The notes under the pieces are model-generated. The model did no database searches and had not been told where the DNA came from. It saw nothing but the letters and a program-made list of their open reading frames with translations. Below, one piece after another: positions 462-5,605 of a stretch of DNA of 34,847 nt. The DNA lies in the IMG/VR virus record IMGVR_UViG_3300025398_000053, positions 1 to 34,847 of that record; one strand, 5' to 3'. The DNA is from a virus. Its lineage: Duplodnaviria; Caudoviricetes. Position numbers and translations under genes: made by a program. Position 1 is the first letter of the stretch. Every line of letters starts with the position of its first letter.

Positions 462-706
462 TTATTGTCCCTCGCATAAGTTTTCCATAGGGTTTCCATT
501 ACTTCTACTGCGCCCATCGCTAACAGTTCATGCTTGTAAAAGAATCGAGCTGGGTATTCGTTACGACCAAACTGATTCACAATCTTGATGCAAGGTGCTA
601 CATACACGCCTGGCTTGGTGTAATGCGGAAGATGCAACACACCGCCCACAAGATAGCACTTGTATTGAGCAAAGTCAGGGCTTTCAAATTCAGGGTTCAA
701 TTTCAT
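458..706 (-). CDS. hypothetical protein
   Basis: Start re-assigned to ATG at 706 (MKLNPEF...) because of a TAATG overlap with the upstream mini-ORF. Confidence 0.65.
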   Translation of the reverse strand: MKLNPEFESPDFAQYKCYLVGGVLHLPHYTKPGVYVAPCIKIVNQFGRNEYPARFFYKHELLAMGAVEVMETLWKTYARDNK

Positions 707-780
707 TAAAAACCCCAGCCAATCATACCGCCCAAGATAATACCCAATACAACTACACCAATCCAATCTATTGTTTTCAT
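706..780 (-). CDS. 24-aa single-TM membrane peptide
   Basis: Hand translation MKTIDWIGVVVLGIILGGMIGWGF*. Strong SD (AGGGGGA) just upstream and TAATG coupling to the next gene. Confidence 0.65.
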   Translation of the reverse strand: MKTIDWIGVVVLGIILGGMIGWGF

Positions 781-801
781 AATTCCCCCTAAGTTAAAAA
801 G

Positions 802-873
802 TATCAGGTCAAAGTCTTTTTGTATACATGTCGCTTCCTATAGCCTGTGCCGAATAGTGTCAGTGACCTGATA
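802..873 (-). promoter_or_regulatory. structured 5' leader or small RNA candidate
   Basis: Perfect 10-bp inverted repeat TATCAGGTCA (802-811) / TGACCTGATA (864-873). A minus-strand -10-like TATAGT lies at 885-880, 6 nt upstream. Confidence 0.45.
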
Positions 874-932
874 TATGTAACTATAAATATAAAAATCACA
901 AAAAAACCATTTTGTGCAAAATATATTTTATG

Positions 933-950
933 TGTTGTTTTTATGCTACG
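933..950. promoter_or_regulatory. degenerate TGTTG-N8-CAACA operator-like site
   Basis: TGTTG tttttatg CTACG, in an intergenic position. Confidence 0.35.
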
Positions 951-1010
951 AAAGGTGGGGCTGAGACCTCACGGAAGGAATTTTGGCGGGGGATCACCAA
1001 CCCAGCCCCA
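951..1010 (-). ncRNA. putative small structured RNA (three-way junction, C4/CI-like)
   Basis: Minus-strand stem UGGGGCUGGG/CUCAGCCCCA with two inner hairpins whose G-U pairs favour this strand. A perfect TATAAT lies at 1021-1016, and the element ends in ACCUUU. Confidence 0.5.
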
Positions 1011-1016
1011 AAGATA

Positions 1017-1787
1017 TTATACGACCAATCCGCTTTTAATTTGGTAGAAGCGTAGCAGATGAAAAAAGCACTTTAGGCCCTTCTGCAAATCCGCTTCCTC
1101 AATCTCGCAGACCTTGACTTCATTGGTCAATCCATTGACAAAAACAATAGCGCACCGAGCATCTGACAAGCCTAATAACTCTCGGTAGGCAGCCAACTGC
1201 ATGATATGATCCTCGTATGGAACGACCTTTTCTAAAGGGACTTCTTTTGTCTTAAAATCTGCAACTACAGGGACAATGCCCTTAATCTTATCGCCTTTAG
1301 CGTGTAAGTCCACTTTTCCAGCAAATCCTAGCTCATGGCTACCAGACTTCTCAGTAACCCATAGGCGATTGCCAAACGAGGCTTTTAAGGCGTTTTCTGC
1401 ATTACGGCAATACTCAGGCACTTCAGGCAGTAAAACTTGGCTAAAAAAGGCTTCTAAGATGCCGTGGATTTGTGTTCCTCTATCGGCTGCATCTCTGCCT
1501 TGTGCTTTAGAGTCGTTGAGAACTCGGTCTAAGTAATCTTCCTCAGACTCGCCCTCATTGCGTGGTAGCGTTAGGGCTGCAAGGATAGCCTGCTGCTGAA
1601 GCCAATTCTGGAGTCCAGGCTTTGACGCCACACCGAGAATGGTAGTAACGCTCGGTAAAAGGCCCAGCTTCTTTGCATCTCTAAGAGTCGTGTTGCGGAA
1701 TCCTTTTCCATCGGCTCGTTCAATCGTATAGGCTGGCTCTCCATCTTTGGTGTACCAATGGCCTGATTCACTCTTTTGTTCCTGCAT
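1017..1787 (-). CDS. PD-(D/E)XK exonuclease (phage recombination nuclease)
   Basis: Motifs LPSVTTIL, RGTQIH, FAGKVDL, VADFKT and QLAAY. Located next to SSB-like and annealing genes. Confidence 0.85.
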   Translation of the reverse strand: MQEQKSESGHWYTKDGEPAYTIERADGKGFRNTTLRDAKKLGLLPSVTTILGVASKPGLQNWLQQQAILAALTLPRNEGESEEDYLDRVLNDSKAQGRDAADRGTQIHGILEAFFSQVLLPEVPEYCRNAENALKASFGNRLWVTEKSGSHELGFAGKVDLHAKGDKIKGIVPVVADFKTKEVPLEKVVPYEDHIMQLAAYRELLGLSDARCAIVFVNGLTNEVKVCEIEEADLQKGLKCFFHLLRFYQIKSGLVV

Positions 1788-2052
1788 TTTTTCTTCCCCT
1801 TTTTGGTTTTACTGCATCCGTGTGTATATCGTATGTTGACTCTTGGGCAACGATTGTAGCCTGTGGAGCAACAGTTATTGTAATGCCTGTATTTGCATCT
1901 TCCCAATCTTTGATAGTTGGTTCATATTCTTTTGGAATTTCTTGCCCGCACCAGTCTTGTGGCATTTTATTAATCACCACAGGGTTGAGCTTACAAGCTC
2001 CCATCATATCGTTTTGATTAAATACAAAAAACTTACATACTCGGCAAGTCAT
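1768..2052 (-). CDS. small four-cysteine metal-binding protein
   Basis: CxxC-x13-C-x14-C with DWC at the last cysteine, and a basic C-terminal tail. Confidence 0.7.
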   Translation of the reverse strand: MTCRVCKFFVFNQNDMMGACKLNPVVINKMPQDWCGQEIPKEYEPTIKDWEDANTGITITVAPQATIVAQESTYDIHTDAVKPKRGRKNAGTKE

Positions 2053-2255
2053 TTAATTCCTTTTGCGTAATCAAGGATACGTTCTGAATCGTAATAGTTC
2101 TCGCACATATTGGCAGCAACGTGCAGAACCGCATTAATTACAGCAGCTAAATCTTCTGGTGTAAAGCTGATAAGCAGTTGCTCCTCATCTACACCTACTG
2201 GCTGCCAACTTATTCTAGAGCTTTGCTCAACAAGGTTTTTAATTTGGTTCTGCAT
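2049..2255 (-). CDS. hypothetical protein
   Basis: 68 aa ORF with an AAAGGAGA SD and a 4-nt overlap with the downstream gene. Confidence 0.7.
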   Translation of the reverse strand: MQNQIKNLVEQSSRISWQPVGVDEEQLLISFTPEDLAAVINAVLHVAANMCENYYDSERILDYAKGIK

Positions 2256-2266
2256 GGTGTTCTCCT

Positions 2267-2530
2267 TTAGAACGGGGTACTATCATCTATAAACGGATCA
2301 TCCTTTGGTAGTTCGTCTGATCCTGCTGGTTTAAATCCTTGTGGGATTTTTTCTTTGCCGATTGATACGCTAAGAAACTTTGATCCTTTAGTGGATGTCT
2401 TAGTCCAGGCAGATAAGTAATGTTCTTTGCCGTTGACCATGATTGTTCCGGTAAAGTCAGGATGGTTGTCAGAAGCCTTGCGCTCGTTTTTGAAAAGACT
2501 TCCTGATCCTTCTTTTGGTGTATATGCCAT
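2267..2530 (-). CDS. ssDNA-binding protein-like (DUF736-type)
   Basis: GSLFKN...HPDFTG...LSAW...FLSVS core, an acidic tail ending DDSTPF as in SSBs, and a recombination-module context. Confidence 0.75.
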   Translation of the reverse strand: MAYTPKEGSGSLFKNERKASDNHPDFTGTIMVNGKEHYLSAWTKTSTKGSKFLSVSIGKEKIPQGFKPAGSDELPKDDPFIDDSTPF

Positions 2531-2541
2531 GTTGTTTCCCC

Positions 2542-2994
2542 TTATAAAATATCTTCTGCTACAGATTTCATTGATTGACTAGACTTCACTTGTTTTGGTG
2601 CTTCATCTTCTGGCAAATCCTCACCAGCGTAGATATACAAACCAATGCCATGCAAGGCAATCGCTTTGACTAAGCATCGTTGCATAGCAGTATTGACATC
2701 CATTGCATTAGGATTGGCAATCGGCTTATTCATATTGTTGATAATTGGTAGCTGTGATGTCATTGCTTTACCAAAAGCATGAACTGTGCAAAACACCATT
2801 CCTGTATCGCCAATAGCGCAATAAGGCAACAAAGACCCATCAGGCTGTTGAAATAACTTGTAATCCCAGCTTGCTGTGGGATCGGCTTGAAGCAACTGAT
2901 CGGTGGCCCACGCCCAAGAAAGATAAGTAAAACGACCTTTGCGCTCGGTATGGTCGTTGACGTTGATCTTGCGAAGTTCTAAAAATTTAGACAT
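2542..2994 (-). CDS. Sak-like single-strand annealing protein (DUF1071)
   Basis: Motifs TYLSWAWA, NTAMQRCLVKAIALHGIGLYIYAGEDLP. Start re-assigned to MSKFLELR after a GGAGG SD. Confidence 0.85.
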   Translation of the reverse strand: MSKFLELRKINVNDHTERKGRFTYLSWAWATDQLLQADPTASWDYKLFQQPDGSLLPYCAIGDTGMVFCTVHAFGKAMTSQLPIINNMNKPIANPNAMDVNTAMQRCLVKAIALHGIGLYIYAGEDLPEDEAPKQVKSSQSMKSVAEDIL

Positions 2995-3190
2995 TAGAAC
3001 CTCCAAAGACTTTACCAAAATCTTCAAACACGGATTGCAATAGATTATTACGCTTGTTATTTGGCTTTCCACAAGCTGCACGAATAACATCCACATCGTC
3101 TTGCGACAGTTCTGTGCCGTATTCCATGTTGTCTAACGCTATTTCCAAGCGTTGCTCCATTTCGGTCATAACTTGATACAACTCATCCAT
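2987..3190 (-). CDS. hypothetical protein, first gene of the leftward operon
   Basis: 67 aa ORF with an AAGGGGA SD, directly downstream of the leftward promoter. Confidence 0.75.
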   Translation of the reverse strand: MDELYQVMTEMEQRLEIALDNMEYGTELSQDDVDVIRAACGKPNNKRNNLLQSVFEDFGKVFGGSNV

Positions 3191-3233
3191 TTAAATTCCC
3201 CTTAAATGACATAGCGAAGTTGCTATACCCTTG

Positions 3234-3261
3234 ATTGTAAGCAAATTGATTGGCTTGTCAA
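3234..3261 (-). promoter_or_regulatory. leftward sigma70-type promoter (pL-like)
   Basis: TTGACA (3261-3256), 16-nt spacer, TACAAT (3239-3234). Confidence 0.7.
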
Positions 3262-3266
3262 TACCT

Positions 3267-3296
3267 TTGCAAAAATAATTACTTATGGTGTAAGAT
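3267..3296 (+). promoter_or_regulatory. rightward sigma70-type promoter (pR-like)
   Basis: TTGCAA (3267-3272), 18-nt spacer, TAAGAT (3291-3296). The ATG follows 6 nt later. Confidence 0.6.
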
Positions 3297-3302
3297 TCCT
3301 GA

Positions 3303-3536
3303 ATGAAGCTAAAAATCACAGATTCGGCAATTATTGATCTGCTTGGGGGTACTACAAAAGTGGCTAAATTAGTAGGAGTTTCACCTCACGCTGTATCAAT
3401 GTGGCGAAAAAACAACATTCCAGCAGCACATTTTGCAGTATTAGGAGCAACTCTTGAAAAGGAGTCGCATGGTTTAATCACACGCAAGGATTTATTTCCT
3501 CAATCCTGGCATCTAATTTGGCCTGAATTATTATGA
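3303..3536 (+). CDS. Cro-like HTH transcriptional regulator
   Basis: LLGGTTKVAKLVGVSPHAVSMW helix-turn-helix, and a C-terminal DLFP..W.LIWPEL like Cro/YdaS-type proteins. First gene of the rightward operon. Confidence 0.8.
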   Translation: MKLKITDSAIIDLLGGTTKVAKLVGVSPHAVSMWRKNNIPAAHFAVLGATLEKESHGLITRKDLFPQSWHLIWPELL

Positions 3537-3688
3537 ACAGAGAAGAAATGTTAGTAGATATGCTTAAACAAGCAGATTTAGAAATTAAAGTTTTGCAAGA
3601 ACGAATTGCTTTTTTAACTAACGAAGTTAAAGCGCATCGTGATTTGTTAAATGCGCTTGGCCCAGTTGCTTTTTCGGGGCAACACTAA
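3533..3688 (+). CDS. 51-aa hypothetical coiled-coil protein
   Basis: Not in the ORF track. MNREEMLVDMLKQADLEIKVLQERIAFL..., with ATGA and TAATG overlaps to its neighbours. Confidence 0.7.
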   Translation: MNREEMLVDMLKQADLEIKVLQERIAFLTNEVKAHRDLLNALGPVAFSGQH

Positions 3689-3915
3689 TGGAAATTTTAA
3701 TTAAAAAAATCAAAGAAAATAAAGACGGGTCAGCCGAAGTCCACGTGCATTATGACAAGGAAGGATTGCATTTTCTTGTCCAGCAAGGAATGACTTGCAC
3801 TTTGGTGGAAGCAATAATGATGGAACGTAACGGCAAAATGTTTCATGTTTCAAGCGTTCTGGACACCATTCCCAAGAAAACTGTTGTAAAAAAACAACAA
3901 ACTAAAAAGAAATAA
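3688..3915 (+). CDS. hypothetical protein
   Basis: 75 aa ORF coupled to the previous stop. Confidence 0.7.
   Translation: MEILIKKIKENKDGSAEVHVHYDKEGLHFLVQQGMTCTLVEAIMMERNGKMFHVSSVLDTIPKKTVVKKQQTKKK
3882..3899. promoter_or_regulatory. TGTTG-N8-CAACA operator-like palindrome
   Basis: TGTTG taaaaaaa CAACA, upstream of a -10-like TAAACT (3923-3928). Confidence 0.55.
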
Positions 3916-3931
3916 GTTGTAGTAAACTCTA

Positions 3932-4010
3932 TGGACAGGCTAGGGTCATCCCCGAAAAGCGATTAGTCACCGCCCGCCATGTCCACCTTTTTGACTACCT
4001 TTGACAAAGG
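3932..4010 (+). ncRNA. putative structured regulatory RNA upstream of the replication gene (C4/CI-like)
   Basis: Closing stem TGGACA-GGC/GCC-a-TGTCCA with two inner hairpins. Loop TAGTCA is complementary to TGACTA (3992-3997). Hairpin CCTTT-gac-AAAGG covers the SD. Confidence 0.55.
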
Positions 4011-4016
4011 AATAAA

Positions 4017-4787
4017 GTGAATTTTTACCCTTTCCACATTGGCGATTACGCCTCACATACACGCCATTTAAGTCTTATAGAAGATTTAGCTTATCGCAGG
4101 CTTATTGACCTTTACTATTTATCTGAAAAGCCATTTCAAGGCGAATTTGATCTTATAGCTCGACACATTGGCATGAAAGAATACTTAAACGAAGTTGAGT
4201 ATGTTCTTTTTATGTTTTTTGAAGAAACCCCATCTGGGTGGATAAATAAGCGTTGCGATGACGAAATAGCTAAATATCATGCTAAGGCTGAGTCTGCCAG
4301 AAATGCAAACAGAATCAAATCAGAAAAGATATCAGCTCTGAAATCAGAACCGAATCAGAACGTAACCAAGAACCAAGAACCATTAACCAATAACCATAAA
4401 CCAAAAACTAAAAACCAATTAAAAACACCTGAAGGTGTATCTGATTCTTTGTTTAAAGATTACTTAGCAGTTCGCAAAGCAAAAAATGCCAAATGGACTG
4501 AAACAGCTTTTAAAGGATTACAACGAGAAGCAGATAAGGCTAAAATGTCCCTCTCTGATGTAATGCAGATGTGTTGCGAAAGAGGTTGGGCTGGATTCAA
4601 AGCTGAGTGGGTTTCAGAATCAGTTATTACACAAAAGAAAAATCCGTTAATAACTAACGATCAGATTGAAGAAGCGTATAGAATTGAATGTGGTAAAGAC
4701 CCTAAATTGGCCCGCTTTAACAGCTATTACGAAATGAAGGATTATGTCATCAAACAGCGGGAACTCCGAGCTAGAGGCGATACATAA
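4017..4787 (+). CDS. phage replication initiator, DUF1376/YdaU family
   Basis: N-terminus FYPFHIGDYASHTRHLSLIEDLAYRRLIDLYY, an NQEP-type linker, and the position downstream of cro. Confidence 0.85.
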   Translation: MNFYPFHIGDYASHTRHLSLIEDLAYRRLIDLYYLSEKPFQGEFDLIARHIGMKEYLNEVEYVLFMFFEETPSGWINKRCDDEIAKYHAKAESARNANRIKSEKISALKSEPNQNVTKNQEPLTNNHKPKTKNQLKTPEGVSDSLFKDYLAVRKAKNAKWTETAFKGLQREADKAKMSLSDVMQMCCERGWAGFKAEWVSESVITQKKNPLITNDQIEEAYRIECGKDPKLARFNSYYEMKDYVIKQRELRARGDT

Positions 4788-4977: not shown

Positions 4978-5078
4978 TGGTAGGTATTTTGCAATTACGC
5001 AAGGGGGCGTTTCCTAACGCAATTATTTGGTTAGGTTATGCGTTTAGTCAAATTGGTCTTTGGCTTGCATTAAAGTAA
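4932..5078 (+). CDS. 48-aa two-TM membrane protein
   Basis: Not in the ORF track. MLEKTIIAATGLGYLMVGILQLRKGAFPNAIIWLGYAFSQIGLWLALK, with an AGGGGGGA SD and TAATG coupling to the next gene. Confidence 0.7.
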   Translation: MLEKTIIAATGLGYLMVGILQLRKGAFPNAIIWLGYAFSQIGLWLALK

Positions 5079-5605
5079 TGGATTTATTTGATTTTCCTAG
5101 AATTGTTCCTGAAAGCCCAAAGTTGATGACTTTGCGTGAGGTAGGGGTTGATTATGCTATGGAAAAAAATGCGGATTGGCATAGTCGTTTGCCTGTTACA
5201 AGTCATTCAAATATGATTAGAAATGCTCACAAAGTTTTTTATGGCGCAGAATACAAAGATCATTGTTTTGCAGTTGCTATGTGGACTGACCCTGTGGCTG
5301 GCAATCGTATGTCAAAAGACCATGTATGGCTTGAATTAAGAAGGTTAGCTATTGCGCCTGATGCACCAAAATTTACTGCTACCTGGATGATTTCAAAAAT
5401 GGTTAAGGATATACAAAAGCGTTTTCCAGATGTAACTATGCTTGTTTCTTATCAAGATACTGAGGTTCATTCTGGAACAATTTATAAAGCTGCTAATTGG
5501 AATCTAGATACAGTTAGTAAATTTCAAGAATGGTCAAGTGAAAAAAGAAAAAGAAACGCATTACAAAGCAAGGCTGATAAAATTAGATGGAGCTATGCAA
5601 TATGA
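5078..5605 (+). CDS. Mom-like (GNAT-fold) DNA modification protein
   Basis: LELRRL...ATWMIS...LVSYQD...HSGTIYKAANW matches the Mu Mom family pattern. Start re-assigned to ATG at 5078. Confidence 0.75.
   Translation: MDLFDFPRIVPESPKLMTLREVGVDYAMEKNADWHSRLPVTSHSNMIRNAHKVFYGAEYKDHCFAVAMWTDPVAGNRMSKDHVWLELRRLAIAPDAPKFTATWMISKMVKDIQKRFPDVTMLVSYQDTEVHSGTIYKAANWNLDTVSKFQEWSSEKRKRNALQSKADKIRWSYAI

Follow-up and report, generated by a model that had tools for sequence, protein, structure and literature searches.

The int-alpA motif (RF02996), catalogued by Rfam under the type 'Gene; sRNA' and reportedly originating from the 2017 survey of Weinberg et al., is a three-way junction with CUAG, CGAAAAG and CCUG strands, as is the leader RNA found in our window, the term used here for the whole stretch of DNA analysed, a linear virus record of 34,847 bases. 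The RF02996 model as printed has 71 positions, is without loop-target pairing and ends before the features described below as site 2 and P4. The other point of comparison is the C4 type, in which each of two RNA loops pairs with a target and the RNA is processed by RNase P from a longer transcript; a 3' RCC suits this enzyme. Like the leader, C4 of phages P1 and P7 (RF01695; an antisense RNA, PMC2864571) and CI of phage P4 are small branched phage RNAs whose exposed bases match two sites in their own operon, their specificity shifts between relatives, and the stem of the leader ends in ACC within the window's clade. The leader differs from both in having no corresponding Rfam match, in its junction and in the use of one loop for both sites. 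Its targets both lie 3' of the RNA, within 25 nt, whereas those of CI lie upstream and downstream (PMC4825925), and CI acts via transcription termination, unlike the translation control proposed for the leader.

Two further systems resemble the leader in wiring. In ColIb-P9 repZ with its Inc RNA (PMC4705826), loop-to-downstream pairing governs access to the Shine-Dalgarno (SD) sequence of a GUG-start initiator held in a hairpin. There, pairing is activating and depends on a leader peptide together with a counter-transcribed RNA, whereas in the leader described here the paired site overlaps the SD, a second, putative decoy site is present and no leader peptide is conserved. Gifsy-1 IsrK is likewise a phage leader within its own target message which controls translation (PMC4825925), and a further likeness is that antirepressor genes follow some relatives of the window element. 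IsrK is however a terminated short form invading a long helix in trans, and the leader has no IsrK or c4-a1b1 match in Rfam.

The early region of the window is lambdoid-like. Leftward early genes encode Sak, SSB and an exonuclease, and rightward early genes run from a Cro-like gene through two small ORFs to a DUF1376 protein of 256 amino acids, the likely replication initiator, which starts at a GTG codon at 4017 (Table 1). Within the initiator gene, where lambdoid origins lie, the repeats AACCAAGAACC and AACCA(A/T) at 4365-4415 are likely the replication origin. A divergent promoter-like pair is present upstream of the Cro-like gene (3234-3279, minus strand 11/12 matches), with no CI-like repressor ORF seen adjoining it, and a Mom-family protein, likely a DNA-modifying enzyme, is encoded at 5060-5605 (PF25680).

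Table 1. Positions of the leader RNA, its predicted pairing sites and associated features in the window.
Feature	Coordinates	Strand	Remarks
Likely -10 promoter box TAAACT (relatives: TAAAAT)	3923..3928	+	-10-like hexamer enriched across family
Three-way junction, int-alpA-type	3932..3985	+	P1 3932-3940/3976-3985, bulged A3979
P2 hairpin, GGG/CCC, loop UCAUC	3943..3953	+	Only central AU self-complementary in window copy
P3 hairpin, GCG/CGC, with specificity loop L3 AUUAGUCAC (3962-3970)	3959..3973	+	Loop-site covariation
Linker after P1, ACC + U5	3985..3992	+	ACC conserved in window's clade only; no terminator called
Site 1, UGACUA, 6 bp with L3	3992..3997	+	Predicted -6.4 kcal/mol; likely decoy
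P4 hairpin CCUUU/AAAGG, enclosing site 2 and part of SD	3998..4010	+	P4 covariation
Site 2, UGAC 4002-4005, 4 bp with L3	4002..4008	+	Predicted -4.3 kcal/mol
SD-like AAGGA	4007..4011	+	5 nt upstream of GTG; from sequence
DUF1376 protein, likely replication initiator	4017..4787	+	256 aa; Pfam PF07120, E 6.9e-21; PHROGs primosomal protein and O-like initiator
Conserved three-way junction, not part of switch	951..1010	-	Directly after exonuclease stop

No Rfam family matched the window at gathering score. The best match below threshold was int-alpA at 3933-3997, with 21.4 bits (E = 0.31), hence the window copy does not reach the RF02996 cut-off of 35.8 bits. Its junction strands (UA at 3941-3942, GAAAA at 3954-3958 and CC at 3974-3975, the last being CU in most relatives) carry CUAG and CGAAAAG exactly and CCUG with one U-to-C change, and a near-identical relative has kept the U in the third strand. 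For 20 viral loci found by pattern and run through Rfam, int-alpA was the match in all 20, above cut-off in 12. Furthermore, 45 members not belonging to the window's clade yielded a model which found the window element with 31.6 bits (E = 1.4e-6), the next-best match in the window reaching 10.8 bits. By these comparisons the element is a divergent int-alpA-type RNA, though below Rfam's own cut-off, and it differs from the described motif in that score, in CC for CU in the third strand and in the DUF1376 initiator downstream. Indeed, the integrase or alpA context expected from the motif name was not found for the gene downstream of the window copy, and integrase N-terminal domains occur in one of 139 downstream genes. 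A literature search on int-alpA and RF02996 returned no account of mechanism, its limit being the supplement of the 2017 survey, which may describe pairing. The term 'alpA' is absent from the available part of the main text of PMC5737381.

Relatives were drawn from junction-pattern scans (121 viral, 120 genome and 119 metagenome loci) and from 80 viral loci with a homologous initiator, 41 of which carry the element at E ≤ 0.1. A parser requiring only the junction and three stems accepted 94/119 metagenome and 34/80 initiator loci as well as the window, and nothing in 328 kb of shuffled sequence. The junction pattern is estimated to occur in about 4400 viral stretches, and 103 of the 121 sampled viral loci parsed as structure. 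The genome-contig scan was too loose (24/120 parsed), its estimate of 4300 being mostly chance. After parsing, 233 distinct members with 172 distinct loops were available; one member per distinct loop, minus 21 with loops outside 6–14 bases, gave a covariation set of 151. Choosing members by junction pattern and stem parser biases pair counts in P1–P3 towards structure, while the test of loop against site is independent of that choice. Genes downstream of the leader (n = 139) included DUF1376 proteins (n = 32), HNH/NUMOD/GIY-YIG/T5orf172-type proteins (n = 15), HTH_36 proteins (n = 5) and antirepressor or Rha proteins (n = 4); 74 had no Pfam family, many of the genes being truncated by locus ends. 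Seven well-formed members were seen in assembled genomes labelled Desulfarculaceae, Planctomycetes, Myxococcaceae, Terriglobia and Bacillota, labels which may err. One contig possessed two leaders with CCUUG common to both loops, hence cross-pairing between the two is possible.

The specificity loop L3 covaries with two downstream sites. Watson-Crick runs of L3 with its own downstream region measured 5.77 for the best and 4.74 for the second, against 3.83 and 3.13 in cross pairs (n = 151), and none of 20,000 permutations reached the observed sum (z 31). Runs of at least 5 plus at least 4 were detected in 128 of the 151 members, compared with 12% when pairs were crossed and 6/150 when the upstream region served as control; the remaining 23 members lack this two-site pattern. 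As kin are not independent, loops were also swapped within nearest relatives, defined by the downstream protein, and in 28 disjoint pairs the own loop outperformed the swapped one in 26, with one tie and one loss. The window's clade contains three loop classes with matching changes at both sites in each, UUAGUCAC (sites UGACUA and UGACA), UUUAUCAC (GUGAUAA and UGAUAG) and UUCGUUAC (GUAACG and AACGAA). This covariation, at the level of sequence, supports pairing of L3 with both sites.

A start codon was identified in 139 of the 151 members, of which 123 have two sites with at least 4 pairs and 15 a single such site. Site 1 follows P1 at a median of 6 nt, and site 2 ends a median of 7 nt 5' of the start codon. 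The 108 members of regular geometry include 97 that bear an SD, and in 91 of these site 2 overlaps it (by at least 4 bases in 60). Across the 108, P4, formed by the spacer and the bases 3' of site 2, covaries (z 12.6). In the window copy, site 2 can be extended by eye to A4007-A4008 across one A-A mismatch. Mean predicted energies at the two sites are near-equal (-8.0 and -8.1), and their spacing ranges from 3 to 33 nt, mostly 4–11. The distance from junction to site 1 is 13–18 nt in 101/108 members and does not grow with P3 (rho 0.01), while longer P1 stems go with shorter linkers (rho -0.85, partly by construction), a geometry which does not single out a cis pseudoknot. G-U pairs at duplex edges are only modestly enriched (U opposite G 44 versus 34 expected), and the computed cost of opening the SD falls only from 6.6 to 6.0 kcal/mol with site 1 occupied, both results counting against the toggle favoured below.

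The first-pass annotation, made on the window alone, had proposed two-site loop-target pairing at the ribosome-binding site of the initiator. The features it named are all present, and where it gave positions these are correct: the junction at 3932-3985, loop UAGUCA (found at 3964-3969) opposite UGACUA (3992-3997), ACCUUU (found at 3985-3990), AUCCCC (3948-3953), a second GUCA (3945-3948), the hairpin CCUUU-gac-AAAGG (3998-4010) and the GTG (4017). The proposal gains from the relatives, where loop and targets covary (z 31; 26/28 pairs), as does the SD hairpin. From the window locus alone the case is weak: its fold energy has a z of -1.92, with 8/200 shuffles as good, and TGACTA occurs 12 times on the plus strand, the nearest upstream copy being at 2667. 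It is through the relatives that the case exceeds chance.

A -10-like hexamer was found 9–16 nt before CUAG in 56/108 members, compared with 3/108 in a control window. This position suggests that transcription likely starts at the 5' end of P1, near 3934-3935 by prediction in the window. The box at 3923-3928 was not called by a two-hexamer promoter scan, and no minus-strand promoter-like site was called in a scan of 3554-4300, which also missed the likely plus-strand promoter. A 13-codon frame at 3979-4020, with its ATG inside P1 and no SD, was rejected as a leader peptide, the ATG being present in only 19 of 59 clade loci.

On balance, we lean towards the window copy being an mRNA leader in which L3 toggles within one molecule between two states, on when it holds a decoy and off when it holds the SD site. 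Translation of the initiator would be throttled by an int-alpA-type RNA that likely forms the 5' end of its message, L3 pairing with one downstream site at a time: with L3 on site 1 the ribosome-binding site would be usable, and with L3 on site 2 it would be locked. The balance of two near-equal pairings would then cap the output of a protein harmful in excess. In most members site 2 covers the SD, and it lies within P4; L3 bound there would block initiation, hence site 1 is most simply read as a decoy. Since site 1 is the stronger predicted partner in the window copy (-6.4 versus -4.3 kcal/mol), the default there would lean on, with a weak P4 as the remaining brake. Comparison of relatives argues for the junction, the covariation of L3 with both sites, P4, the overlap of site 2 with the SD and the -10-like box; from there we infer the promoter, intramolecular pairing in the window copy, the sign (site 2 as off), the capped output and the trigger of the switch. 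Genes downstream of the leader are of kinds which need limits, consistent with a throttle. Turnover of loop specificity is high, with 172 distinct loops among the 233 members, which suits an intermolecular role no less; a purely intramolecular model also leaves the self-complementarity of the P2 loop unexplained.

That self-complementarity is the basis of a second, tentative reading, in which the leader is a concentration-sensing dimer. Leaders would kiss via their P2 loops and each L3 would pair with a site of the partner, with output following the amount of leader RNA, which would reflect genome copies or a co-infecting phage. A monomer locked at site 2 whose dimer trades to site 1 would be a threshold activator, and the reverse would give negative feedback. 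Palindromes of 4 nt were detected in 80 of 132 distinct P2 loops, far above shuffles (32.5 ± 4.4, maximum 49), while L3 is depleted in them (12/159 against 25.8). Of 19 distinct P2 loops of 5 nt, 15 have self-complementary bases at positions 3–4, as do 9 of the 13 that lack a 4-mer. GACG loops recur on 9 distinct P2 arms, and GACG tetraloops make loop-loop contacts in retroviral dimers (PMC5874298). The P2-loop centre of the window's clade alternates between AU and GC, and some more distant members carry TGCA, AATT or AGCT. The palindrome excess, the centres of the 5-base loops and the recurrence of GACG make an intermolecular step likely for the int-alpA-type family, a conclusion which we do not extend to the window copy. 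There, UCAUC lacks a 4-nt palindrome and its predicted self-duplex comes to +2.8 kcal/mol, against a family median of -3.5; a 4-nt P2 palindrome is likewise absent from all 18 clade rows in the palindrome test, hence the cis toggle is placed first for the window copy and the dimer second. More speculatively still, the int-alpA family may be a programmable RNA-only dosage sensor, its leaders dimerising via the palindromic loop and swapping their anti-RBS loops between decoy and SD, whereby phages would gauge the number of their own transcripts or genomes and only then produce initiators, nucleases and antirepressors; the window's clade would then have a minimal kiss of two base pairs.

Membership of the C4/CI type, to which the first-pass annotation had likened the element, seems improbable. 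The junction would be cut out, by RNase P at the stem and ACC or by a stop at the U run, and would act as a trans antisense RNA on both sites of read-through messages, with immunity-like specificity. In keeping with this, the stem+ACC end is found in 54/59 clade loci, including those where P1 changes, U5 lies directly 3' of P1 and loop specificities are variable. Precedents are P4 CI RNA, a processed RNA which pairs with two sequences, and IsrK, which acts on its own message in trans (PMC4825925). Against it, no C4, c4-a1b1 or c4-2 match was obtained from Rfam at gathering score in the window, nor at E ≤ 10 in 700-4300. Both targets lie downstream of the RNA and none upstream, the upstream 42 nt, where a C4-type target was sought, showing the two-site pattern in 6/150 members. 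The second GUCA, in P2, had been put forward as a further pairing partner, yet the P2 interior does not covary with the downstream region as a second C4 loop would (z -2.3). This GUCA is lacking in close relatives with the same targets and kept in relatives with other targets, although duplexes with the targets are predicted (-4.1 and -4.6 kcal/mol). Across the family, ACC follows P1 in 13/151 members and a TTTT run is present in 46/151, a frequency on which a terminator was rejected as a family feature. Moreover, no terminator was called in the window and, if transcription starts at P1 as is likely, there is no 5' leader to be cut. As the leader and the element at 951-1010 both end in stem+ACC within the clade, tRNA-like or RNase P processing may take place there.

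We give little credence to repZ-like activation, in which L3 at site 2 would open P4 and free the SD. Pairing at site 2 does remove U4002 (and A4007-A4008 if extended) from P4, and the GUG start is shared with ColIb-P9 rep (PMC4705826), but site 2 itself covers the SD in 91/97 members, by at least 4 bases in 60, and no leader peptide is conserved, the ATG at 3979 occurring in 19/59 clade loci. Least credible of all is an incidental RNA fold with the repeats serving as protein-binding DNA sites (operator or iteron), a reading in line with TTTGAC at a 10-base period (3990, 4000) and the weak G-U signal but opposed by the inverted copy within the loop of a covarying hairpin, by site spacing that varies from 3 to 33 nt (mostly 4–11) and by downstream proteins that are unrelated, yet follow an invariant junction.

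The leader had also been proposed as one of an undescribed pair of tRNA-like RNAs, together with the minus-strand element at 951-1010, a proposal which is not supported. The leader is of int-alpA type, and the 951-1010 element scores 6.6 bits (E = 6.7) with the int-alpA-type model. An ARAGORN scan for the tRNA cloverleaf returned 0 genes, and the two elements end in ACCU or ACCC, not CCA. The features said to be common to both are literally present in the window, but within the leader family AUCCCC occurs in P2 of only 12/151 members and stem+ACC in 13/151. From sequence comparison, the stem+ACC end, found in 54/59 clade loci for the leader and 78/80 loci for the 951-1010 element, is the sole common trait that holds. 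The leader is thus a well-supported RNA with the anatomy of a two-target switch, and neither a C4/CI RNA nor one of a homologous pair.

The 951-1010 element is itself conserved: 11 sequences show 100% pairing and 3 compensatory pairs, and it is present in 57/80 exonuclease loci. Its distribution is narrow (81 viral stretches); Rfam returned no match for it. Its near-invariant loops are a C run and UUCCGUGAG. By eye, the AUGG...CCACC ends and second loop of its relatives resemble C4 rows. Pairing of this element with the initiator SD, suggested by a 7-base match seen by eye, was rejected, the two varying independently in 15 distinct loci with both, and no complement of at least 8 bases near 3900-4030 was found among the matches listed.

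On these results, an orphan RNA catalogued as an sRNA would be a portable leader of mRNAs, whose wiring comprises a single loop, a choice of two targets and an SD hairpin, and to which most members add a self-complementary second loop. It appears to be common in phages, before replication initiators, nucleases and antirepressors. If the proposed switching is true, phage replication proteins could be capped or thresholded by RNA alone, and the many natural loop-target specificities would offer a ready set of orthogonal translation switches.

Among relatives of the initiator, the leader RNA is gained or lost as a module. In five loci an upstream ORF with a window-like end (VVKKQQ) abuts the initiator, which has a plain SD and no leader RNA, and in 18 others the initiator apparently follows directly after the Cro-like gene. 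A further five loci carry the same leader before an initiator homolog whose N-terminus differs (MQKADIW), hence the leader stays while the start of the gene changes.
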